Source: Escherichia coli
GTDB taxonomy: Bacteria > Pseudomonadota > Gammaproteobacteria > Enterobacterales > Enterobacteriaceae
Length of the DNA: 64,000 bases
Direction: 5' to 3' (one strand)
NCBI RefSeq assembly: GCF_041886205.1
Contig: NZ_CP169030.1
Within the stretch, counting starts at the first letter, position 1, and every line of letters begins with the position of its first letter. Below are positions 2,529-45,957 of this stretch, in pieces. The position numbers and the translations under genes were made by a program. Under the pieces are notes generated by a model. It was not told the origin of the DNA, made no database searches, and worked only from the letters and a program-made list of their open reading frames with translations.

Positions 2529-2759
2529 ATGAGAACCGTATCGATATTTAAAAATGGCAACAACCGCGCCATCCGTCTGCCTCGTGATCTGGATTTTGAG
2601 GGGGTGAGCGAGCTCGAGATCGTCCGGGAAGGGGACAGCATCATCCTGCGCCCCGTCCGGCCAACCTGGGGATCATTCCTAGAGTACGAAAAAGCCGATC
2701 CAGATTTTATGGCGGAGCGCGAGGATGTTGTCAGCGACGAAGGGCGATTTAACCTGTGA
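2529..2759 (+). CDS. vapB: VapB/VagC-type antitoxin (AbrB/SpoVT fold)
   Basis: 76 aa, N-terminal SpoVT/AbrB-like motif (RAIRLPRDL), stop overlaps start of PIN toxin gene. Confidence 0.8.
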   Translation: MRTVSIFKNGNNRAIRLPRDLDFEGVSELEIVREGDSIILRPVRPTWGSFLEYEKADPDFMAEREDVVSDEGRFNL

Positions 2760-3172
2760 ACAAGACTTATATGCTTGATACCTGTATCTGCTCGTTCATC
2801 ATGCGTGAACAGCCAGAAGCCGTCCTGAAGCGTCTGGAGCAGGCGGTGCTACGCGGCCACCGTATAGTGGTCTCGGCCATCACCTACTCTGAAATGCGCT
2901 TCGGGGCTACCGGCCCAAAGGCCTCACCACGTCACGTCCAACTGGTCGATGAATTCTGCGCCCGCCTCGATGCCATCCTGCCCTGGGATCGCGCCGCAGT
3001 AGACGCCACCACGAAGATTAAAGTGGCACTGCGGCTGGCCGGGACGCCGATCGGCCCGAACGACACGGCGATTGCCGGGCACGCCATCGCCGCCGGGGCG
3101 ATACTGGTAACGAATAATACAAGAGAATTTGAGCGAGTGCCTGACCTGGTGCTGGAAGACTGGGTGAAGTAA
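2756..3172 (+). CDS. vapC: VapC/VagD PIN-domain toxin
   Basis: 138 aa; MLDTCICSF N-terminus and C-terminal VTNNTREFERV motif typical of plasmid VapC/VagD PIN nucleases. Confidence 0.85.
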   Translation: MNKTYMLDTCICSFIMREQPEAVLKRLEQAVLRGHRIVVSAITYSEMRFGATGPKASPRHVQLVDEFCARLDAILPWDRAAVDATTKIKVALRLAGTPIGPNDTAIAGHAIAAGAILVTNNTREFERVPDLVLEDWVK

Positions 3173-3333: not shown

Positions 3334-5472
3334 TCAAGCGATACGGGCAACCGAGCTCTGGTTTGCTGCCGGTGGCAGGGCGATGAGCTTGTCACATTCC
3401 ATAATCACGTACTCCGGGATGAGATCGAATCTGGACGGATCTAGTTGACAGATGAACTCATTTTCAATGTGGTACGTTTCGTTAACGAATTTTCGTATTA
3501 CCGGATGGTCCTGATCCAGTTCCAGTAAACGGAATACCTGCAGTTTTTCATAGCCGTTACGACAGCGACGGTACAGGTTTTTTATTTCATCTGGGCTGCT
3601 GACGAGAGCCTGAAGTCGCGGGTAATCAAAACTGTCCACATACTCCCGGATATCCCGCAAGGCCTGCTGAATTTTCTCAGGAGCCATTTTGGGATAGCCC
3701 GAGCCCGCAGCGGCAGGCTCGCGATAATCCAGCGGGACGACGCGTCGATGGAATAGATTGGATAGAAGCTGATAAGCATCACCACGTTCGTCAACGATTT
3801 CAAAGTAGCGACGAAGATAGATGAGCTTAATGATCTCCTCACAGTCTGCTGACGCGGTGATGGATTTGCAGATCTGCATGAATGTCATGATATCGCCGTC
3901 GTTAACAGGTAATTCTTCTATGACTCCAGCAGACAGGCGCAGGCAGGAGGCGGTCACCTGATTACTGAACAACCTTCTGACTGACTTCAGCGTGTCAATC
4001 ACAGGCTCCACGTCATGCGTCAGCATAAGTACAGTCCGGTTCTTCAGGCATTCACCACTTGCACGTCTGAACAGCATTTCAAGAATGGCAAACTTCTTGT
4101 TTTTATCAAAAGAAGATATGGGATCATCAAGGATAATCAGTCCCGGGTTTTTTGACAGGCATTCATACATGAATAACACAATCGCAAAGGCGTTCCGTTC
4201 TCCATAGCTGAGATGCTGGCTACCGCCGCTGACGTACCCGTCAAAATCTATGTGTCGTAGCCTGAGTTTTCTCTGCTCTCCCTCGCCGGCTATATCCACC
4301 CTGTATTTATAGCCTGCATAAGTGAGGAAATTATTGATGTTTGTTTTGTGCTGTGCGATCAGCCGGATCATGCTGTCCCGGTGCCGGTTAATTTTTCCCT
4401 GCAGCGGTCCGGCAAGGTTTATCAGGTCCATAAGGGCCGCGTTCAGTCTGTCGGTGATCCCCTGCATGAGTTCGGATTGCAGATCAGGGAAGAACTGCAG
4501 GTCAATCAACCTGGCAGTGAGCACCTCCCGAACGTTCTGCTGTTCCTGCAGGCTGAAAACATTCAGGCCTCTCAGCGCAGTGAGTTTCTCTGTCAGCGTA
4601 TCGGTCTGGCGTTTCAACGCCACTAGGTACTCGATATGTTCGGCTTCCGGACCGTTCTGAAGCATAGTAATGGCCAGAAGGCGTTCTCTGGCGCTCTCCG
4701 TCAGGTAATTACCGAGGTTTTCCACCAGTCTGATGATAGCGGTCAGGTTTTTAATGGTGGATTTATCGTATTCCTCTCTGACTTGGCGAATTTGTGCTTC
4801 CTTTCCCGTGATATCACCGGTACAGAACGGACAGCAGCCATCCGAAAGGGGCGAAAACTCGAGTCCCTTTGTCTGCCAGTCAATCCATTCCACGCGGCGT
4901 TCACTGCGGATGTAGGGTTGATAGTTCTCAAGACCAGCCGGAATGTGGTGTATTTTATTTCCGCCTGACAGACCTCTCATGCCGGTTGAAGAACGTGAAA
5001 TCCCGGAACTGGTTGATCTGAAAGCATTACTGAGTTCCTGTAGATGGTCTATCAGAGAGTTCAGCTCAGTGTGATCCGTGAAAACAGCCCGGATCTTTTG
5101 CGTCATTTCTTCTATTTCACGCTCTCTTTCCGCATGGGCTTGATTGCGGATAAGAATATTAAAGCTATCACTGATGAGCTCGTCCGGTTGGAACGTAAAC
5201 TGACTGACGTACTCCTCGTTGAAGCACATCACGTCCCCAATCCCGTCAGCACCGATGACAATGGGCCCGGTGCTATCGGGGTTTTCTCCGCGCAGCCGGA
5301 AGGGTATCAGTGCCTGTAGTCCCTGAATGTCGTCCCGCGCCGCACAGCTTATGGCCCGTGACAGCGTACTTTTTCCAGTACCATTTGGCGCAAACTTAAT
5401 GTTCAGTTTATCGGCAGTGAGGGTGATATGTGCTCGTACGATGTTATTGCAGTGGCGTATTTCAATGTCCAT
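3334..5472 (-). CDS. ABC-type ATPase with coiled-coil CxxC zinc hook and C-terminal domain; RloC/PrrC-like anticodon-nuclease candidate
   Basis: Walker A (FAPNGTGKST) at N-terminus, long predicted coiled-coil insert containing CPFC, Walker B/D-loop (LIILDDPISSFD) and H-loop (LMLTHD), then ~220-aa C-terminal domain with LRRYFE and H-containing motifs; architecture matches RloC. Confidence 0.5.
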   Translation of the reverse strand: MDIEIRHCNNIVRAHITLTADKLNIKFAPNGTGKSTLSRAISCAARDDIQGLQALIPFRLRGENPDSTGPIVIGADGIGDVMCFNEEYVSQFTFQPDELISDSFNILIRNQAHAEREREIEEMTQKIRAVFTDHTELNSLIDHLQELSNAFRSTSSGISRSSTGMRGLSGGNKIHHIPAGLENYQPYIRSERRVEWIDWQTKGLEFSPLSDGCCPFCTGDITGKEAQIRQVREEYDKSTIKNLTAIIRLVENLGNYLTESARERLLAITMLQNGPEAEHIEYLVALKRQTDTLTEKLTALRGLNVFSLQEQQNVREVLTARLIDLQFFPDLQSELMQGITDRLNAALMDLINLAGPLQGKINRHRDSMIRLIAQHKTNINNFLTYAGYKYRVDIAGEGEQRKLRLRHIDFDGYVSGGSQHLSYGERNAFAIVLFMYECLSKNPGLIILDDPISSFDKNKKFAILEMLFRRASGECLKNRTVLMLTHDVEPVIDTLKSVRRLFSNQVTASCLRLSAGVIEELPVNDGDIMTFMQICKSITASADCEEIIKLIYLRRYFEIVDERGDAYQLLSNLFHRRVVPLDYREPAAAGSGYPKMAPEKIQQALRDIREYVDSFDYPRLQALVSSPDEIKNLYRRCRNGYEKLQVFRLLELDQDHPVIRKFVNETYHIENEFICQLDPSRFDLIPEYVIMECDKLIALPPAANQSSVARIA

Positions 5473-5689
5473 TTATCTGTCCTTTGCCAGTTATTCCGGG
5501 GGGATTCATATCCTTCCGCAAAATGTGCCCGCATGCTGTGATGCAGATACATAATACATTTCGTTTATACCATTGCTTACACCTCTCCGAGGTGTTCATA
5601 TCAGAAACAAAGATTAGGTCGATCCGACTTAGCCGGAAACCGGATCTGCGCGGCAGAAAAGACGCAAATGATATGATAATTAAGAAATA

Positions 5690-5815
5690 TACATAAAATC
5701 ATATCAGATATGATTTTAATCATTAAAAATGAAACAATATCTGATATTATCAGAAATCAAAAGCACACAAATCATACATGATATGATTTTTACCTGTCAG
5801 AACATTATCAGATGG
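5690..5815. promoter_or_regulatory. AT-rich divergent promoter region with repeated inverted repeats (AAAATCATATC-a-GATATGATTTT and related)
   Basis: Perfect 11-bp arms at 5695-5717 and an imperfect copy at about 5769-5790, lying between the divergently oriented RloC-like gene and the 85-aa gene. Confidence 0.35.
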
Positions 5816-5825
5816 AGCGTGCAGG

Positions 5826-6083
5826 ATGGATCAGGAAATGACGTTTTCACTCAGCTATGAACAACTGACCCGGTTTGCGGAACGACGCATCCGGGAATGC
5901 AATCTGGACAGCCAGGGCGCGATTTATCTCTGCGAGTCAGCCAAAGCCGGAGCCGTGCTGATCTTCTGGCATGAACTGGCCATAAATGGCTATGCCTCAA
6001 TGAATGCCATAAAGAGACAGGAGCTCATTGACGCCGACTTTCAGCGCCTCAGAAAGCTCATCTGGCCGGAGGATGACAGGTAA
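5826..6083 (+). CDS. Hypothetical protein (85 aa), first gene of a translationally coupled pair
   Basis: ORF with stop overlapping the start of the next gene (TAATG); no recognisable motif. Confidence 0.4.
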   Translation: MDQEMTFSLSYEQLTRFAERRIRECNLDSQGAIYLCESAKAGAVLIFWHELAINGYASMNAIKRQELIDADFQRLRKLIWPEDDR

Positions 6084-6673
6084 TGACCCAGAGCCGCCGA
6101 CCGTCGCCACTGCAGCGGAGAGTGCTGATTGTGCTGGCTGCCCTTGATGAAAAACGGCCAGGACCCGTGCTGACGCGGGACATAGAACGGGTGCTGGAGC
6201 GAAGCGGGGAAGCCCCGGTCTACGGGCCAAACCTGCGCGCCTCCTGCCGTCGTCTGGAGGATGCCGGCTGGCTGCGTACCCTGCGCGCTCCGAACCTGCA
6301 GCTGGCAGTGGAGCTGACGGACGCCGGCCGGGCCGTGGCACAGCCTCTGCTGCTGGCAGAACAGGACCGCCTCCGGGCAGAACAGCGTGCGGCAGAAGTC
6401 GTCGTACTGCCGCTGGTCCCGGCAGCAGGTCTGCACGCAGACGGCACTTCTGCCACTGATCTGGCGGTGGAGCTGAACGGCATAACGTATCAGGCCTGCC
6501 GTGGGGATTTTGTGGTGCGTCTCGACGGCAGCACCTGTCTGCAGTTATGGAATAAAGAAGGCAGAGTGGTACGCCGGGAGGGCGATCCGCTGGAAGTGGC
6601 GCAGTGGCTGCAGGCCTGTCATGATGCCGGAATAGAAGTTCGTGTACAGGTTAATGAAAGCGTCACTCCGTAA
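6083..6673 (+). CDS. Putative winged-helix DNA-binding protein (196 aa), high GC
   Basis: N-terminal segment LQRRVLIVLAALDEKRPGPVLTRDIERVLERSG resembles a wHTH; about 65 percent GC, contrasting with the AT-rich upstream region. Confidence 0.4.
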   Translation: MTQSRRPSPLQRRVLIVLAALDEKRPGPVLTRDIERVLERSGEAPVYGPNLRASCRRLEDAGWLRTLRAPNLQLAVELTDAGRAVAQPLLLAEQDRLRAEQRAAEVVVLPLVPAAGLHADGTSATDLAVELNGITYQACRGDFVVRLDGSTCLQLWNKEGRVVRREGDPLEVAQWLQACHDAGIEVRVQVNESVTP

Positions 6674-6690
6674 AAACATGCCAGCACGGT

Positions 6691-7038
6691 TTACACGTCA
6701 TCCCATGATGGCAGCCGGTTAACTTTCCTGCGCCACCAGTGGAAAGAGGCCATGAGCAGTCCGAACAAAAAACCACCCGTGATACTTATAATAATGGCCT
6801 CACCTGCCACCATTCCTGACGGCCTCCAGTAGATAAACCACATTGCACATCCCCAGGAAATGCCCCATAAGCCCCCCGTCAGCACCGTGACCTGCCAGAA
6901 CGGCATAAAGGGTAATGGCGGAAGCCGGATACCCAGCCGCCAGAGAATACGCAGAAGAGGAGGGGCATAATTGCTCCGCCACATCTTTTTGCTGTCCATC
7001 AGGGCAATGGCCCGGGCTTTTTTCTGCTCAAAGGTCAC
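6691..7038 (-). CDS. Small hydrophobic membrane protein (115 aa), function unknown
   Basis: Two or three hydrophobic segments (LPPLPFMPFWQVTVLTGGLWGISWGCAMWFIYW; IIISITGGFLFGLLMASF); located next to the colicin immunity gene. Confidence 0.4.
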   Translation of the reverse strand: MTFEQKKARAIALMDSKKMWRSNYAPPLLRILWRLGIRLPPLPFMPFWQVTVLTGGLWGISWGCAMWFIYWRPSGMVAGEAIIISITGGFLFGLLMASFHWWRRKVNRLPSWDDV

Positions 7039-7166
7039 AGGAGCACCTCCGTTCCATGATGTAAACGTGACACAGCTTATTGTTATTGATTATTATTATC
7101 ATGCTGTGATTATGTTGTCATGCATCAGTACACTGACAAAAGTGCAAAAGAAAGGAAAACAGGCAG

Positions 7167-7502
7167 ATGAACAGAAAATATTATTTTAATAATATGTGGT
7201 GGGGATGGGTGACGGGGGGATATATGCTGTATATGTCATGGGATTATGATTTTAAATACAGATTACTGTTCTGGTGTATTTCTCTCTGCGGAATGGTTTT
7301 GTATCCGGTTGCAAAATGGTATATTGAAGATACAGCTCTGAAATTTACCCGGCCTGATTTCTGGAACAGCGGTTTTTTTGCTGATACACCTGGAAAAATG
7401 GGATTGCTTGCTGTTTATACGGGTACTGTTTTCATATTATCTCTTCCGTTAAGTATGATATATATTCTTTCTGTTATTATAAAAAGGCTGTCTGTAAGAT
7501 AG
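7167..7502 (+). CDS. Colicin Ia/Ib-type pore-forming colicin immunity protein
   Basis: 111-aa membrane protein MNRKYYFNNMWWGWVTGGYMLYMSW... recalled as the colicin Ia immunity protein; convergent with a colicin C-terminal remnant as in ColIa/ColIb loci. Confidence 0.6.
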   Translation: MNRKYYFNNMWWGWVTGGYMLYMSWDYDFKYRLLFWCISLCGMVLYPVAKWYIEDTALKFTRPDFWNSGFFADTPGKMGLLAVYTGTVFILSLPLSMIYILSVIIKRLSVR

Positions 7503-7639: not shown

Positions 7640-8698
7640 GCTTTGTTGAATAAATCAGATTTCGGGTAAGTCTCCCCCGTAGCGGGTTGTGTTTTCAGGC
7701 AATACGCACGCTTTCAGGCATACCTGCTTTCGTCATTTTGTTCAGCGCTCGTACCAGGGCCATAGCCTCTGCAACCTGACCATCGTAGTCACGCAGCGTC
7801 AGTGAACCCCCGAACAGCTGTTTTACCCGGTACATCGCCGTTTCCGCTATCGAGCGACGGTTGTAATCTGTTGTCCATTTCCACCGCGCATTACTCCCGG
7901 TCATTCGCTGATTAGCCACTGCACGGTTACGGTCTGCATATTCACCGGGCCAGTAACCCGCACCTTTTCGGGGAGGGATAAGCGCGCTGATTTTCTTACG
8001 CCGCAGTTCATCGTGACATAGCCGGGTATCGTAAGCGCCATCGGCGGCGGCTGACCTGATTTTCCGGTGGGTTTGCCGGATTAACCCGGGGAAGGCCTCT
8101 GAGTCCGTAACGTTGTTCAGCGACAGGTCAGCGCAGATGATTTCATGTGTTTTACTGTCAACGGCGAGATGCAGCTTACGCCAGATACGGCGGCGTTCCT
8201 GGCCATGCTTTTTGACTTTCCACTCGCCTTCACCGAAGACCTTCAGCCCGGTGGAATCAATTACCAGGTGTGCGATTTCACCCCGGGTGGGCGTTTTGAA
8301 ACTGACATTAACCGACTTTGCCCGCCTGCTGACACAGCTGTAATCCGGGCAGCGTAGCGGAACGTTCATCAGAGAAAAAATGGAATCAATAAAGCCCTGC
8401 GCAGCGCGCAGGGTCAGCCTGAATACGCGTTTAATGACCAGCACAGTCGTGATGGCAAGGTCAGAATAGCGCTGAGGTCTGCCTCGTGAAGAAGGTGTTG
8501 CTGACTCATACCAGGCCTGAATAGCTTCATCATCCAGCCAGAAAGTTATGGAGCCACGGTTGATGAGGGCTTTATTGTAGGTGGGCCAGTTGGTGATTTT
8601 GAACTTTTGCTTTGCCACGGAACGGTCTGCGTTGTCGGGAAGATACGTGATCTGATCCTTCAACTCAGCAAAAGTTCGATTTATTCAACAAAGCCCGT
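7640..8698. mobile_element. IS903-like insertion sequence (IS5 family, IS903 group), 1059 bp
   Basis: Terminal inverted repeats GGCTTTGTTGAATAAATC at both ends bracketing a 322-aa IS5-family transposase; no matching 9-bp target duplication. Confidence 0.8.
7695..8663 (-). CDS. tnp: IS5-family (IS903-group) transposase
   Basis: 322-aa DDE transposase ORF filling the IS between its inverted repeats. Confidence 0.85.
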   Translation of the reverse strand: MKDQITYLPDNADRSVAKQKFKITNWPTYNKALINRGSITFWLDDEAIQAWYESATPSSRGRPQRYSDLAITTVLVIKRVFRLTLRAAQGFIDSIFSLMNVPLRCPDYSCVSRRAKSVNVSFKTPTRGEIAHLVIDSTGLKVFGEGEWKVKKHGQERRRIWRKLHLAVDSKTHEIICADLSLNNVTDSEAFPGLIRQTHRKIRSAAADGAYDTRLCHDELRRKKISALIPPRKGAGYWPGEYADRNRAVANQRMTGSNARWKWTTDYNRRSIAETAMYRVKQLFGGSLTLRDYDGQVAEAMALVRALNKMTKAGMPESVRIA

Positions 8699-8810: not shown

Positions 8811-9086
8811 CTACCTGTTTTCTCGTGTGTGCCACAGGCGCAATACATAAATAGTCTGGCCATTAAGTTCGTAACGGATTTCGTACTCGCCAGCAAAAAT
8901 CCGTCTGACCTCCCTGGGTTCAAACTGAAACAACTGTTCTCCCATACGTGGATGAGTTAACAGAATGACCGGTGCCTGTGTCAGGGATTGCACCGTTCTG
9001 GCGGCCGCAGGTTTACTGGCCAGCACCAGAAAATCATATAACCGCGCCAAATCAGAAAGCGCCTTACTGGTCCACTTCAGTTCCAT
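8811..9086 (-). CDS. RelE/ParE-family toxin
   Basis: 91 aa with typical RelE/ParE C-terminal signature; overlaps upstream antitoxin gene by 1 nt. Confidence 0.7.
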   Translation of the reverse strand: MELKWTSKALSDLARLYDFLVLASKPAAARTVQSLTQAPVILLTHPRMGEQLFQFEPREVRRIFAGEYEIRYELNGQTIYVLRLWHTRENR

Positions 9087-9370
9087 CAGCGTGGCACCGG
9101 TAACGGATTGTCAGTACTGAGGCTGTCCGCCCAGGCCTGTACAGCCTGATGGTCGATAACCTGTCCGGATGTCACATCGTCCAGGGCTTCCAGCGTCAGG
9201 CGATTACGCTCCTCCTCCTGGGCAAGCCATGCAGAAAGCGCCTGTTTGATAACCCAGCCCCGGGAGCGTTCCAGCCTGGCGGCCATCTGGTCGACTTTAT
9301 CAGCCATAGGTAATGGCACATGCGCGGTAATGACTTTTGTTGCTTGTGCACTATTGTTTTTCATTTGCAT
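9086..9370 (-). CDS. Antitoxin (RHH/ParD-like) of the RelE/ParE module
   Basis: 94-aa ORF immediately upstream of and overlapping the toxin gene. Confidence 0.6.
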   Translation of the reverse strand: MQMKNNSAQATKVITAHVPLPMADKVDQMAARLERSRGWVIKQALSAWLAQEEERNRLTLEALDDVTSGQVIDHQAVQAWADSLSTDNPLPVPR

Positions 9371-9755: not shown

Positions 9756-11333
9756 TTATCCTCGTTTTTCCCAAAACTGTTTTGCCAGTTCGCTCAGAGC
9801 GCTAGTTAACTGAGCGACAGATTTCGCACTTTGCAAATTATTCTGCCCGGTCTGTACATTGGTATCAGCAGCATCGCGTATATTGATAATACTGCGGTTT
9901 ATGTCTTCACTTACTGCTCCCTGCTGCTCGACCGCAGTCGCTATTTGCGCGTTCATGTCGGTAATTTCGTTAACGCGTTGGCCAATTCCATCAAGAGCTG
10001 TAGCTGCTTCCTCTGCGTGAGCTACACTCGTGTGCGCTTGCCGACTACTTTGCTCCATGACTGTAACAGCGGATTGCGCTCGCTCTTGTAGAGCGCTGAT
10101 CATGCTTTGAATATCCGTTGTCGATTGCTGTGTGCGAGCAGCAAGACTGCGAACCTCATCGGCGACAACAGCAAAACCACGCCCCTGCTCACCAGCACGC
10201 GCGGCCTCAATTGCTGCGTTGAGTGCCAACAAATTCGTTTGCTCGGCGATCCCTCGTATAACGTCAAGAACTTTTGATATCTCGTTACTTTGACCTTCAA
10301 GCTCATGAATAACCTGAGTGGCTTGCCTAATTTCACCTTCAAGGGCAGTGATTGACTGGCTTGTGTGGGCTACCAGACGCTGGCCAGATGCCGTCTCAGT
10401 GTCTGCTCTTCCGGCCGCATCTGCAGCATGCTGTGCATTGCTCGCAACCTCTTGAATGCTTGCCACCATTTGGTTTACTGCCGTTGCTATTTGATCTGTC
10501 TCTGCCTGCTGCTCAACTGTAAGTACATTGCTTGACTCAATATCCTTTAGTAGGCCTCGGGTGTGTTCGCTAAGCCGATTTGATGCATCACCTATGCGAC
10601 CTACTATGGCGCCTGTTTCAGCTTGCATCATTCGTAAAGCAAACTCTATTTGGCCAAACTCATCGGTGCGCCCAGTGTAGAGGGATTGACTTAATGGGTT
10701 ATTGGAAATATTCTTGGCTCTTTCAACCAGTCTTCCAAGAGGAGAGAGAATAGCCAAAACACTAACAGAGCTTAAGCTTCCTGACATTAAAGTGGCTAAC
10801 AATAAGCTGCTTATTGATGTATCAGTAAGCATGCCGGCAGCCATTGCGCTTGATATAATACTACCCCATATGAGCAAGAGTATTTTCACGGAAAAGCTAG
10901 CAGCCAATTTCGGCCTCGCGGCCTTCCCGCTTCTCAATTGAGCATATAATTTTTCCGCAGCCAAAACCTGCTCAGGTTCAGGCTTGGTCCTTACAGACTG
11001 GTATTCAACAATCGAACCATTCTTAGCTATTGGCGTTACATAAGCACTTACCCAATAGTGGTCGCCATTTTTACAGCGATTTTTTACTAGCCCCATCCAT
11101 GAGCGGCCAGATTTTAATGTACTCCACATATGCTCAAATGCAGCAGGCGGCATATCTGGGTGTCTTACGATGTTGTGAGGCTGGCCTAATAGTTCTTCCT
11201 CAGTGAAACCACTGATTTTAATGAAGTCAGGATTAACGTACGTGATATGGCTTTGAGGGGAGGTAGTCGAAAGAATATTGGCATCTTTTGGGAGTTCTAA
11301 GTTTCGACCCGTCACTGGTAAATTCTGGCGCAT
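9756..11333 (-). CDS. Methyl-accepting chemotaxis protein-like protein with PAS domain (Tn1721 orfI-type cargo)
   Basis: 525 aa; N-terminal PAS-like region, central TM segments, C-terminal MCP signalling domain ([31 protein letters not shown]). Confidence 0.8.
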
Positions 11334-11650: not shown

Positions 11651-11766
11651 CAGTTGATTGGGCGTAATGGCTGTTGTGCAGCCAGCTCCTGACAGTTCAA
11701 TATCAGAAGTGATCTGCACCAATCTCGACTATGCTCAATACTCGTGTGCACCAAAGCGAGGTGAGC

Positions 11767-13446
11767 ATGGCGACGGACACCCCACGGATTCCAGAACAAG
11801 GCGTGGCCACTCTGCCTGATGAGGCTTGGGAGCGTGCGCGCCGTCGTGCGGAGATCATCAGTCCGTTGGCGCAGTCGGAGACGGTCGGGCACGAAGCGGC
11901 CGATATGGCGGCTCAGGCGCTGGGCTTGTCTCGGCGCCAGGTATACGTTCTGATCCGGCGTGCCCGGCAAGGCAGCGGCCTCGTGACGGATCTGGTGCCC
12001 GGCCAGTCCGGTGGAGGTAAAGGTAAGGGGCGCTTGCCGGAACCGGTCGAGCGCGTCATCCACGAGCTACTGCAAAAGCGGTTCCTGACCAAGCAGAAGC
12101 GCAGCCTAGCGGCCTTTCACCGCGAAGTCACTCAGGTGTGCAAGGCTCAAAAACTGCGAGTGCCGGCGCGCAATACCGTGGCCTTACGGATCGCTAGCCT
12201 TGACCCGCGCAAGGTCATCCGCCGGCGGGAAGGCCAGGATGCCGCTCGTGACCTACAAGGTGTGGGCGGCGAGCCTCCTGCCGTGACCGCGCCGCTGGAG
12301 CAGGTGCAGATAGACCATACGGTCATCGACCTGATCGTGGTCGATGACCGCGACCGGCAACCTATTGGCCGCCCGTACCTGACCCTCGCCATCGACGTGT
12401 TCACCCGCTGCGTGCTCGGCATGGTCGTCACGCTGGAAGCGCCGTCTGCCGTTTCGGTTGGCCTGTGCCTCGTGCATGTCGCCTGCGACAAGCGCCCTTG
12501 GCTGGAAGGACTGAACGTGGAAATGGATTGGCAGATGAGCGGCAAGCCCTTGCTGCTCTACCTAGACAACGCGGCCGAGTTCAAGAGCGAGGCCCTGCGC
12601 CGGGGTTGCGAGCAGCATGGCATCCGGCTGGACTATCGCCCGCTGGGACAGCCGCACTATGGCGGCATCGTGGAACGGATCATCGGCACGGCGATGCAGA
12701 TGATTCACGACGAACTGCCGGGAACGACCTTCTCCAACCCTGACCAGCGCGGCGACTACGATTCCGAAAACAAGGCCGCCCTGACGCTGCGCGAGCTAGA
12801 GCGCTGGCTCACATTGGCGGTCGGCACCTACCACGGTTCGGTGCACAACGGCCTGCTCCAACCGCCGGCCGCGCGCTGGGCCGAGGCCGTGGCGCGTGTC
12901 GGCGTACCGGCCGTCGTCACACGCGCTACTTCGTTCCTGGTCGATTTTCTGCCGATCCTCCGGCGCACGCTGACCCGCACCGGCTTTGTCATCGACCACA
13001 TCCACTACTACGCCGATGCGCTCAAGCCGTGGATTGCGCGGCGTGAACGCTGGCCGTCCTTTCTGATCCGGCGCGATCCGCGCGACATCAGCCGTATCTG
13101 GGTCCTGGAACCGGAGGGACAGCATTACCTGGAAATTCCCTACCGTACCTTGTCGCATCCGGCTGTCACCCTCTGGGAACAACGGCAGGCGCTGGCGAAA
13201 CTGCGGCAGCAAGGGCGCGAACAGGTGGATGAGTCGGCGCTGTTCCGCATGATCGGCCAGATGCGTGAGATTGTGACCAGCGCGCAGAAGGCCACACGCA
13301 AGGCGCGGCGTGACGCGGATCGCCGCCAGCACCTCAAGACATCAGCTCGGCCGGACAAGCCCGTTCCGCCGGATACGGATATTGCCGACCCGCAGGCAGA
13401 CAACTTGCCACCCGCCAAACCGTTCGACCAGATTGAGGAGTGGTAG
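11767..13446 (+). CDS. tniA: TniA transposase (Tn402/Tn5053 family, DDE)
   Basis: 559 aa starting MATDTPRIPEQG; ORF-track start at 11731 is an upstream in-frame Met. Confidence 0.9.
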   Translation: MATDTPRIPEQGVATLPDEAWERARRRAEIISPLAQSETVGHEAADMAAQALGLSRRQVYVLIRRARQGSGLVTDLVPGQSGGGKGKGRLPEPVERVIHELLQKRFLTKQKRSLAAFHREVTQVCKAQKLRVPARNTVALRIASLDPRKVIRRREGQDAARDLQGVGGEPPAVTAPLEQVQIDHTVIDLIVVDDRDRQPIGRPYLTLAIDVFTRCVLGMVVTLEAPSAVSVGLCLVHVACDKRPWLEGLNVEMDWQMSGKPLLLYLDNAAEFKSEALRRGCEQHGIRLDYRPLGQPHYGGIVERIIGTAMQMIHDELPGTTFSNPDQRGDYDSENKAALTLRELERWLTLAVGTYHGSVHNGLLQPPAARWAEAVARVGVPAVVTRATSFLVDFLPILRRTLTRTGFVIDHIHYYADALKPWIARRERWPSFLIRRDPRDISRIWVLEPEGQHYLEIPYRTLSHPAVTLWEQRQALAKLRQQGREQVDESALFRMIGQMREIVTSAQKATRKARRDADRRQHLKTSARPDKPVPPDTDIADPQADNLPPAKPFDQIEEW

Positions 13447-17031: not shown

Positions 17032-18045
17032 ATGAAAACCGCCACTGCGCCGTTACCACCGCTGCGTTCGGTCAAGGTTCTGGACCAGTTGCGTGAGCGC
17101 ATACGCTACTTGCATTACAGTTTACGAACCGAACAGGCTTATGTCCACTGGGTTCGTGCCTTCATCCGTTTCCACGGTGTGCGTCACCCGGCAACCTTGG
17201 GCAGCAGCGAAGTCGAGGCATTTCTGTCCTGGCTGGCGAACGAGCGCAAGGTTTCGGTCTCCACGCATCGTCAGGCATTGGCGGCCTTGCTGTTCTTCTA
17301 CGGCAAGGTGCTGTGCACGGATCTGCCCTGGCTTCAGGAGATCGGAAGACCTCGGCCGTCGCGGCGCTTGCCGGTGGTGCTGACCCCGGATGAAGTGGTT
17401 CGCATCCTCGGTTTTCTGGAAGGCGAGCATCGTTTGTTCGCCCAGCTTCTGTATGGAACGGGCATGCGGATCAGTGAGGGTTTGCAACTGCGGGTCAAGG
17501 ATCTGGATTTCGATCACGGCACGATCATCGTGCGGGAGGGCAAGGGCTCCAAGGATCGGGCCTTGATGTTACCCGAGAGCTTGGCACCCAGCCTGCGCGA
17601 GCAGCTGTCGCGTGCACGGGCATGGTGGCTGAAGGACCAGGCCGAGGGCCGCAGCGGCGTTGCGCTTCCCGACGCCCTTGAGCGGAAGTATCCGCGCGCC
17701 GGGCATTCCTGGCCGTGGTTCTGGGTTTTTGCGCAGCACACGCATTCGACCGATCCACGGAGCGGTGTCGTGCGTCGCCATCACATGTATGACCAGACCT
17801 TTCAGCGCGCCTTCAAACGTGCCGTAGAACAAGCAGGCATCACGAAGCCCGCCACACCGCACACCCTCCGCCACTCGTTCGCGACGGCCTTGCTCCGCAG
17901 CGGTTACGACATTCGAACCGTGCAGGATCTGCTCGGCCATTCCGACGTCTCTACGACGATGATTTACACGCATGTGCTGAAAGTTGGCGGTGCCGGAGTG
18001 CGCTCACCGCTTGATGCGCTGCCGCCCCTCACTAGTGAGAGGTAG
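17032..18045 (+). CDS. intI1: Class 1 integron integrase IntI1 (copy 1)
   Basis: 337-aa tyrosine recombinase [49 protein letters not shown]... Confidence 0.95.
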
Positions 18046-21247: not shown

Positions 21248-22261
21248 ATGAAAACCGCCACTGCGCCGTTACCACCGCTGCGTTCGGTCAAGGTTCTGGA
21301 CCAGTTGCGTGAGCGCATACGCTACTTGCATTACAGCTTACGAACCGAACAGGCTTATGTCCACTGGGTTCGTGCCTTCATCCGTTTCCACGGTGTGCGT
21401 CACCCGGCAACCTTGGGCAGCAGCGAAGTCGAGGCATTTCTGTCCTGGCTGGCGAACGAGCGCAAGGTTTCGGTCTCCACGCATCGTCAGGCATTGGCGG
21501 CCTTGCTGTTCTTCTACGGCAAGGTGCTGTGCACGGATCTGCCCTGGCTTCAGGAGATCGGAAGACCTCGGCCGTCGCGGCGCTTGCCGGTGGTGCTGAC
21601 CCCGGATGAAGTGGTTCGCATCCTCGGTTTTCTGGAAGGCGAGCATCGTTTGTTCGCCCAGCTTCTGTATGGAACGGGCATGCGGATCAGTGAGGGTTTG
21701 CAACTGCGGGTCAAGGATCTGGATTTCGATCACGGCACGATCATCGTGCGGGAGGGCAAGGGCTCCAAGGATCGGGCCTTGATGTTACCCGAGAGCTTGG
21801 CACCCAGCCTGCGCGAGCAGCTGTCGCGTGCACGGGCATGGTGGCTGAAGGACCAGGCCGAGGGCCGCAGCGGCGTTGCGCTTCCCGACGCCCTTGAGCG
21901 GAAGTATCCGCGCGCCGGGCATTCCTGGCCGTGGTTCTGGGTTTTTGCGCAGCACACGCATTCGACCGATCCACGGAGCGGTGTCGTGCGTCGCCATCAC
22001 ATGTATGACCAGACCTTTCAGCGCGCCTTCAAACGTGCCGTAGAACAAGCAGGCATCACGAAGCCCGCCACACCGCACACCCTCCGCCACTCGTTCGCGA
22101 CGGCCTTGCTCCGCAGCGGTTACGACATTCGAACCGTGCAGGATCTGCTCGGCCATTCCGACGTCTCTACGACGATGATTTACACGCATGTGCTGAAAGT
22201 TGGCGGTGCCGGAGTGCGCTCACCGCTTGATGCGCTGCCGCCCCTCACTAGTGAGAGGTAG
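21248..22261 (+). CDS. intI1: Class 1 integron integrase IntI1 (copy 2, identical protein)
   Basis: Identical 337-aa translation to copy 1; one silent nucleotide difference noted. Confidence 0.95.
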
Positions 22262-45729: not shown

Positions 45730-45957
45730 ATGGAAACCACCGTATTTCTCAGCAACCGCAGCCAGGCGGTCAGACTGCCAAAAGCGGTTGCATTGCCGGA
45801 AAACGTAAAACGCGTTGAAGTGATTGCTGTCGGACGAACCCGAATCATTACGCCTGCCGGAGAGACATGGGACGAATGGTTCGACGGAAACAGTGTCAGC
45901 GCTGATTTTATGGATAACAGGGAACAGCCTGGTATGCAGGAAAGGGAGTCATTCTGA
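45730..45957 (+). CDS. vapB: VapB-type antitoxin (second vapBC module)
   Basis: 75 aa SpoVT/AbrB-like (VFLSNRSQAVRLPKAV), stop overlaps vapC start. Confidence 0.75.
   Translation: METTVFLSNRSQAVRLPKAVALPENVKRVEVIAVGRTRIITPAGETWDEWFDGNSVSADFMDNREQPGMQERESF

Follow-up and report, generated by a model that had tools for sequence, protein, structure and literature searches.

The stretch analysed here, 64 kb of the Escherichia coli contig NZ_CP169030.1 (the window), carries a two-gene unit, ydfA-ydeA, preceded by a cluster of palindromic sequences and, further to the left, by an inverted repeat (Table 1). A first-pass annotation made from the letters alone had drawn attention to this gene pair, and its description of the sequence is confirmed. 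The perfect inverted repeat with 11-nucleotide (nt) arms lies at 5695–5705 and 5707–5717 (AAAATCATATC/GATATGATTTT), and where at least one related imperfect copy had been announced there are three related sites (S2, S3 and the half-site S0). The intergenic region is AT-rich (GC content of 0.34 for 5551–5850), the stop codon of the 85-residue open reading frame (ORF) overlaps the start codon of the 196-residue ORF in the sequence TAATG, and the second ORF is far richer in GC (64%) than the window (53%), with ydfA at 53%. The overlap is conserved in most of the loci compared, where it measures 1, 4 or 13 nt, and in one of them (L016) the genes stand 4 nt apart. A GGAGGA lies at 6068–6073, inside the 3' end of ydfA and 9 nt upstream of the ydeA ATG. 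The next gene in the window is a convergent one for a DUF6404 protein, and no co-directional gene follows ydeA. Positions of promoter and operator elements are counted from the ydfA ATG unless a start site is named.

Table 1. The ydfA-ydeA module and its control region, with coordinates in the window.
Feature	Position	Strand	Remarks
Inverted repeat, probably an rfsF-type ResD site	5620..5647		left boundary of the module; arms (C/A)GATCCG-N14-CGGATCT
Operator S0, half-site TGATATGATAAT	5664..5682		centre about -153 from ydfA ATG
Operator S1, perfect palindrome AAAATCATATC-A-GATATGATTTT	5695..5717		centre -120
Predicted sigma-70 promoter of ydfA-ydeA	5723..5750	+	-35 TTAAAA, 16-nt spacer, TG-extended -10 TATTAT
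Operator S2, imperfect palindrome AAACAATATC-T-GATATTATCA	5732..5752		centre -84; overlaps the -10
Operator S3, CAAATCATACATGATATGATTTT	5768..5790		centre -47, or about +22 relative to the predicted transcription start
ydfA, 85 residues	5826..6083	+	GGAG 11 nt upstream of ATG
ydeA, 196 residues	6083..6673	+	ATG overlaps ydfA stop (TAATG)

The sites upstream of ydfA form an ordered array. The S1 repeat extends to arms of 12 nt (TAAAATCATATC/GATATGATTTTA), and S1, S2 and S3 follow one another with start-to-start spacings of 36 and 37 bp. The 21-nt consensus AAATCATATNWGATATGATTT, allowed up to three mismatches, finds matches only here in the 64 kb, with 0.00 expected from shuffled sequences, and GATATGAT occurs four times in the window, each time inside 5670–5787. 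S0, which holds an exact TGATATGAT at 5669–5677, is conserved in nine of the eleven loci for which the 250 bp upstream of ydfA were aligned. The site positions are fixed in nine loci, with centres at −120/−121, −84/−85 and −47/−48 that are kept at YdeA identities of 60–97%; plasmids with a YdeA of just 60–75% identity retain all four distances, that of S0 included. The operators co-occur with the gene pair and overlap its predicted promoter, as would be expected of an autoregulated repressor-operator unit. This promoter, of the sigma-70 type, was predicted by a consensus scan, with its −35 hexamer at 5723–5728 and its −10 hexamer at 5745–5750, the latter inside S2. The start site that it implies, at about 5757, would lie 69 nt before the ydfA ATG, in agreement with a BProm start site placed 69 nt upstream of the ydfA ATG in the IncI1 ortholog (PMC12111858); relative to the predicted start, the operator centres fall at about −84, −51, −15 and +22. 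For the IncI1 locus, co-transcription of ydfA, ydeA, ibfA and a ProQ/FinO-like gene was shown by reverse transcription PCR (PMC12111858).

The structure of YdeA was predicted with AlphaFold2 from an 18-sequence alignment (mean predicted local distance difference test score, pLDDT, of 89.1). The model places a winged helix at residues 9–78, consisting of helices 9–24, 31–40 and 48–60 and wing strands 64–68 and 74–78, and this three-helix bundle with its beta-hairpin wing is superposable on solved members of the MarR/PadR/HxlR-like type; the winged-helix-like N-terminal segment noted at the outset is borne out by the predicted structure. A long helix (80–104) is followed by a low-confidence linker of variable length and by a compact, beta-rich C-terminal domain (127–190; five strands, a helix and a strand). 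This last domain is without recognisable fold relatives, as it had no match in Pfam (18 members) or in profile searches of the PDB, and nothing in BFVD at E ≤ 0.001. Long forms of YdeA with 300–430 residues bear a C-terminal extension of 100–230 residues (L012, 5989–7200; L016, 4983–5945; P0123, P0127 and P0131), for which no Pfam or PDB match was found, nor any resemblance to genes located downstream of the short ydeA forms. The window's 196-residue YdeA may have arisen from such a long form by truncation.

Within the pair, conservation is highest in the winged helix of YdeA, and YdfA varies widely, with identities of 31–87%. Between the window and an IncI/K locus (L003), ydeA is 99–100% identical over most of its length, whereas the central and 3' parts of ydfA (5880–6050) are only 54–64% identical and the flanking operators 82–90% identical; ydfA alleles have therefore been exchanged independently of ydeA. 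Two further loci (L017 and L004) combine a common YdeA with different YdfA types. In two decayed variants ydfA is intact: pETEC_80 (L014, 4600–5543) has lost S2–S3 together with 16 residues of the YdeA recognition region, and pB17EC0578-1 (L015, 4744–5510) has lost everything left of S3 together with 27 residues of the long helix of YdeA. A ydeA homolog at 47% identity, carried by a Rep3-type plasmid (L009), has no ydfA upstream; within 50 bp upstream of its start lie TGATATGATTT and an inverted TAAATCATA, a pair expected 0.03 times in that locus. Upstream of very distant YdeA homologs (L005 and L007), the palindromes have arms of only 8 bp in AT-rich DNA and are too weak to count. Because conservation peaks in the winged helix and the solo ydeA homolog keeps the half-sites, we consider it likely that the operators belong to YdeA, and that YdeA rather than YdfA is the binder. 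The initial proposal that the palindromes are operators of the gene pair gains indirect support from their travelling with the pair into unrelated plasmid contexts, their fixed distances from the ydfA start, the overlap of one of them with the predicted −10 hexamer, the winged helix and the conserved stop/start overlap.

The genes are long catalogued, yet uncharacterised, and their family is very widespread. The two proteins go by the names YdfA and YdeA in several database records, as they do on R64-type and ColV plasmids, and the RefSeq label for both is still hypothetical protein. By tblastn, a YdeA gene was detected on at least 5000 PLSDB plasmids, whose hosts include Escherichia, Klebsiella, Salmonella, Enterobacter and Shigella; those from Klebsiella, Salmonella and Shigella number in the thousands. 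Of 5426 complete E. coli genomes, 2116 (about 39%) have the 1.08-kb module, with 2904 of its 2948 places on plasmids. An exhaustive HMMER search of 1.84 billion representatives returned only 222 YdeA clusters, many of them fragments. For YdfA, 295–484 homolog clusters were obtained, and among the matches listed every named organism belongs to the Enterobacterales. Both ORFs are conserved and are real genes under purifying selection, since the ratio of nonsynonymous to synonymous substitution rates (dN/dS) against divergent orthologs is 0.26–0.56 for ydfA and 0.20–0.36 for ydeA; coding signal and conservation, which the first-pass annotation had left to be checked, are therefore present for both.

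Neither protein reached a Pfam, NCBIfam or PADLOC threshold. The sole Pfam match is that of the YdeA winged helix to AbiEi_4 (E 0.024; 15.2 bits, where the cutoff is 25 bits), no curated winged-helix family of Pfam or NCBIfam is matched above its gathering score, NCBIfam holding nothing meaningful, and the only PHROG match with E < 0.01 is to a family of unknown function on the YdeA N-terminus. YdfA had no match in a profile search of the PDB and no identification in PHROGs, and in a profile search of 5.8 billion proteins the matches listed were only YdfA or hypothetical proteins. The operon contains no cognate NTPase of the ParA, ParM or TubZ type that would mark a partition system. In the literature, we found no paper testing the function of ydfA or ydeA, and the pESBL gene table of a transposon screen lists neither gene. 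A plasmid genome-wide association study from 2026 read the plasmid ydeA as the chromosomal L-arabinose exporter YdeA (PMC12987596). The latter is a transporter of the major facilitator superfamily that is unrelated to the plasmid gene, and the shared name is a collision.

Based on the array, the predicted promoter and the YdeA model, we propose that the bicistronic ydfA-ydeA operon is repressed by its own product YdeA, a winged-helix protein acting as a dimer, a reading to which we assign a probability of roughly 60%. The hypothetical sequence of events would be as follows: (i) the predicted sigma-70 promoter gives rise to one transcript from about position 5757; (ii) YdfA and YdeA are made together, with a translational coupling suggested by the stop/start overlap and the internal Shine-Dalgarno sequence; (iii) YdeA would dimerise, probably via the long helix that follows the winged helix; (iv) the dimer would bind palindromes of the form AAATCATAT-N2-GATATGATTT, with half-sites spaced at about 10 bp; (v) occupation of S2, over the −10 hexamer, and of S3, just downstream of the start, aided by S1 and S0, would repress the promoter in a negative autoregulation; (vi) where co-directional genes follow ydeA, repression by YdeA would also control that cargo. 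YdfA might modulate YdeA as a co-repressor or an anti-repressor, which is the weakest step of the scheme and a guess. Taken as a whole, the segment 5620–6673 is best explained as a self-contained plasmid module made up of an rfsF-type site, a promoter with four operators, ydfA and ydeA.

On its left side, homology among the module loci begins at the inverted repeat AGATCCG-N14-CGGATCT (5620–5647), which contains two GATC sites. By chance, such a pattern would occur 0.04 times in the window. Across eight loci the arms do not vary and show no compensatory change, which argues for a conserved DNA site and not for an RNA helix; an RNA structure, with a fold z-score of −1.4, was rejected, and an Rfam scan of 5300–7200 gave no match. 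In the F plasmid, a repeat with identical arms lies at nt 45922–45949 (L018, 5923–5950), between pifC and ccdA. Homology of F with the IncI/K locus runs up to the repeat and is lost beyond it, the spacer of pETEC_80 is a hybrid, and homology between F, IncI/K, pETEC_80 and the window breaks inside or at the repeat. The homology of RepFIA to F has been reported to start at nt 45922 and to begin with rfsF sites (PMC4398462), and rfsF has been described beside ydfA/ydeA or vagCD, with switching of gene sets at that place (PMC8004404, PMC9412624). Judged by its position and the breakpoints, the repeat at 5620–5647 is probably an rfsF-type ResD site. It has the same arms as the repeat of F and lies at mosaic breakpoints, as described in the literature for rfsF, the ResD multimer-resolution site of F-like and IncI plasmids, but its 14-nt spacer differs and the window is without a ResD gene. 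A search of the window for a ResD ortholog yielded none, only integrase matches of 24% identity at 17368–17997 and 21584–22213. In the approximately 61 of 117 kb examined of pEK499, a plasmid reported to be 100% identical to pEC958 in the RepFIA region, the module is not found beside rfsF. A second repeat, GATCCG-N11-CGGATC, lies 548 bp from the first at 5073–5095, inside the ATPase gene to the left of the module; its pattern, too, is expected 0.04 times in the whole window, its spacer has 11 nt instead of 14, and it is conserved in L001 and L002.

On the right side, the stop codon of ydeA marks the point beyond which the IncI/K and pETEC_80 loci are no longer homologous. The unit from the inverted repeat to this stop (about 5620–6673) recurs with unrelated flanks on IncF, IncI/K and Klebsiella IncFIB plasmids. 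To the left of the unit, the IncI/K plasmid pCH365 has yedA-resD, Klebsiella plasmids have arsR, pETEC_80 has ccdAB-resD, and pCAV1752 has a toxin-antitoxin pair. In the window, this place is taken by a gene for an AAA_13/ABC-type ATPase (3334–5472, 712 residues, Pfam E 1e-17) whose full length is matched by PDC-S06, a candidate defence family of PADLOC (E 8.5e-286), and for which the earlier label of RloC-like was only loosely right. After ydeA come ibfA and a FinO-like gene in IncI1 plasmids, a gene for a DNA-binding protein and hha in Klebsiella plasmids, and a polysaccharide deacetylase gene, capU and virK in pETEC_80. We take the module to be independent of the left-hand ATPase, a unit that is portable and adjoins a probable site of plasmid recombination; it would stand beside rfsF because rfsF is a point at which plasmid segments are exchanged. 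With an rfsF-type site at the mosaic breakpoint, the left neighbours of the module would be expected to differ between plasmids. The suggestion that the gene pair was horizontally acquired is true but uninformative; plasmid modules are assembled into a mosaic throughout the region.

Several other features of the surroundings may be recorded here. The segment 1054–5472 looks like a defence and stability island: besides the ATPase gene, it holds a gene for a 299-residue TIR-like protein (PADLOC PDC-S35, E 2e-65) with an upstream partner of 96 residues, and, between the TIR-like protein and the ATPase, vapBC at 2529–3172. To the right of the module, a Fur-box-like sequence (GATAATAATAATCAATAAC, 7082–7100) with three mismatches to the 19-nt consensus and 0 expected by chance lies between the DUF6404 gene (6691–7038) and a colicin E1-type immunity gene (7167–7502), in their divergent promoter region, where it overlaps promoter-like matches on both strands. 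Further on, a 322-residue transposase-like ORF (7695–8663) and a small overlapping gene pair (8811–9370) precede a 525-residue ORF (9756–11333) that by eye resembles a PAS plus methyl-accepting-chemotaxis-type protein, and a 571-residue ORF (11731–13446) in a segment of 63–67% GC that by eye is TniA-like.

The proposal of a YdeA autorepressor has several points against it. The predicted promoter is only a 9-of-12 match to the consensus. Every operator holds TATGAT, a near-consensus −10 hexamer, and the conservation of the operators could therefore partly reflect promoter elements and not protein binding. On an alternative reading, the palindromes would be bound by a host factor, or would simply be overlapping promoter elements, and YdeA would act elsewhere. 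The presence of TATGAT/ATCATA in every site and the AT-rich, loosely iron-box-like composition of the sites are in line with it, as would be the 0.17-fold level of the ydfA transcript of pS88 in iron-depleted broth, a change that was not significant (p 0.119; PMC3438092). However, the best Fur-box alignment in 5641–5810 has six mismatches in 19 positions and was equalled or bettered by 68 of 500 shuffles, the 64-kb window offers no other site of the YdeA type at which YdeA could act, and the half-site persists upstream of the distant solo ydeA on a different type of replicon. We regard this as the least probable of the alternatives. The spacing of 36–37 bp (about 3.5 helical turns) and the number of four sites exceed the needs of a simple autorepressor, and the array could instead be architectural. 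Accessory arrays of this kind are present at the resolution sites cer, psi and res, which the four sites at intervals of about 3.5 turns may resemble. YdeA would then be an accessory protein for ResD/rfsF recombination, acting as a topological filter or setting directionality, or would serve another DNA transaction. The array adjoins the inverted repeat in every full-length locus, with S0 starting 17 bp from it, and the switching of gene sets at rfsF beside ydfA/ydeA would also fit. Against this, F has the repeat and ResD with no ydfA-ydeA or operator array on either side, the window has the module with no ResD ortholog, the solo homolog L009 has half-sites with no such repeat, and rfsF as an exchange point explains the adjacency more simply. 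An architectural role is accordingly quite unlikely in our estimation. Finally, the window has no co-directional gene after ydeA, so that here the module would control nothing but itself, which leaves its selective value unexplained.

Two other explanations were raised by the first-pass annotation. If the pair were a toxin-antitoxin or addiction module, for example with YdfA as toxin and YdeA as antitoxin in the reversed order of HigBA and MqsRA, or an AbiE-like system, a small overlapping two-gene operon with upstream palindromes would be its expected form, its company of plasmid stability genes (the vapBC mentioned above, and ccdAB in pETEC_80) would be fitting, and the weak AbiEi_4 match would acquire a meaning. 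However, neither protein has a significant toxin or antitoxin match in Pfam, NCBIfam or PADLOC, and no AbiEii nucleotidyltransferase gene (DUF1814) is adjacent to ydeA, whose neighbours are ydfA, belonging to no family, and the convergent DUF6404 gene. Moreover, distant YdeA homologs occur without ydfA, and in the decayed variants an intact ydfA stands with a YdeA that lacks part of its DNA-binding domain, and with two operators gone, in L014, or with the 27-residue deletion in L015. The addiction claim is left unsupported by these observations, and we consider it very unlikely. Under the other explanation, the palindromes would be a control region for divergent transcription, and YdeA would use it to regulate the PDC-S06 ATPase as well. 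It draws on a promoter-like match on the minus strand (CTGACA-18-TATGAT, 5800–5771) that has its −10 hexamer inside S3 and is directed at the ATPase gene, and on a junction between ATPase and module that recurs in several hundred plasmids. But the ATPase gene starts about 300 nt away, past the rfsF-type site at which homology ends; the left neighbour of the module varies as described; the −35 hexamer of the minus-strand match is unconserved outside E. coli-type loci, for instance in those of the Klebsiella type; and the junction is present in approximately 634 plasmid records, compared with at least 5000 in which YdeA is encoded. Regulation of the adjacent ATPase thus finds no support, and we hold it to be highly improbable, whereas autorepression of the operon by YdeA remains the reading that we prefer.

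In its proposed mode of action, YdeA can be likened to the autorepressors of the MarR/PadR/HxlR type, although it reaches the threshold of no Pfam family. It differs from them in its additional C-terminal beta-rich domain without fold relatives, in having four operators where those regulators have one or two, and in the small, translationally linked partner gene upstream. Another relative in organisation is AbiEi, the antitoxin of the type IV system AbiE, which autoregulates through inverted repeats in its promoter. Like YdeA, it combines an N-terminal winged helix with a second domain and has inverted repeats in its own promoter, and it is also found on mobile elements among defence genes. 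In contrast to AbiEi, YdeA stays below the AbiEi_4 threshold, is without AbiEii, is preceded by the small gene, and has a C-terminal domain that is unrelated by sequence. KorA, KorC and ArdK are plasmid-encoded repressors that gate operons. With these backbone repressors, the module shares palindromic operators at the head of an operon and cargo downstream, such as ibfA in IncI1 and hha in Klebsiella plasmids; however, the operators in the window are found only at the module's own promoter with no regulon evident, and fold and family differ. The mechanism that we propose, an autoregulated winged-helix repressor, is in itself ordinary.

A more far-reaching extension can be imagined, in which YdfA-YdeA is a gatekeeper switch at the rfsF-proximal end of the exchangeable cargo of enterobacterial plasmids. 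YdeA, forming a nucleoprotein complex on the four sites via its C-terminal domain, would close the promoter, and the fast-diverging, recombining YdfA would be the sensor or anti-repressor that opens it on a cue such as plasmid entry or phage infection, by which downstream defence or regulatory cargo, for example ibfA, would be turned on. We consider this extension speculative and unlikely; if true, it would represent a new two-protein regulatory family controlling plasmid-borne defence. The view of the locus as an rfsF-bounded, self-regulated cassette provides a concrete annotation for two proteins and a testable operator sequence, and it explains why the neighbours of the module vary. The abortive-infection gene ibfA of IncI1 plasmids, whose co-transcription with ydfA-ydeA was shown by reverse transcription PCR (PMC12111858), is predicted to be driven by this same promoter, and YdeA could therefore set the expression level of a plasmid-borne phage defence.

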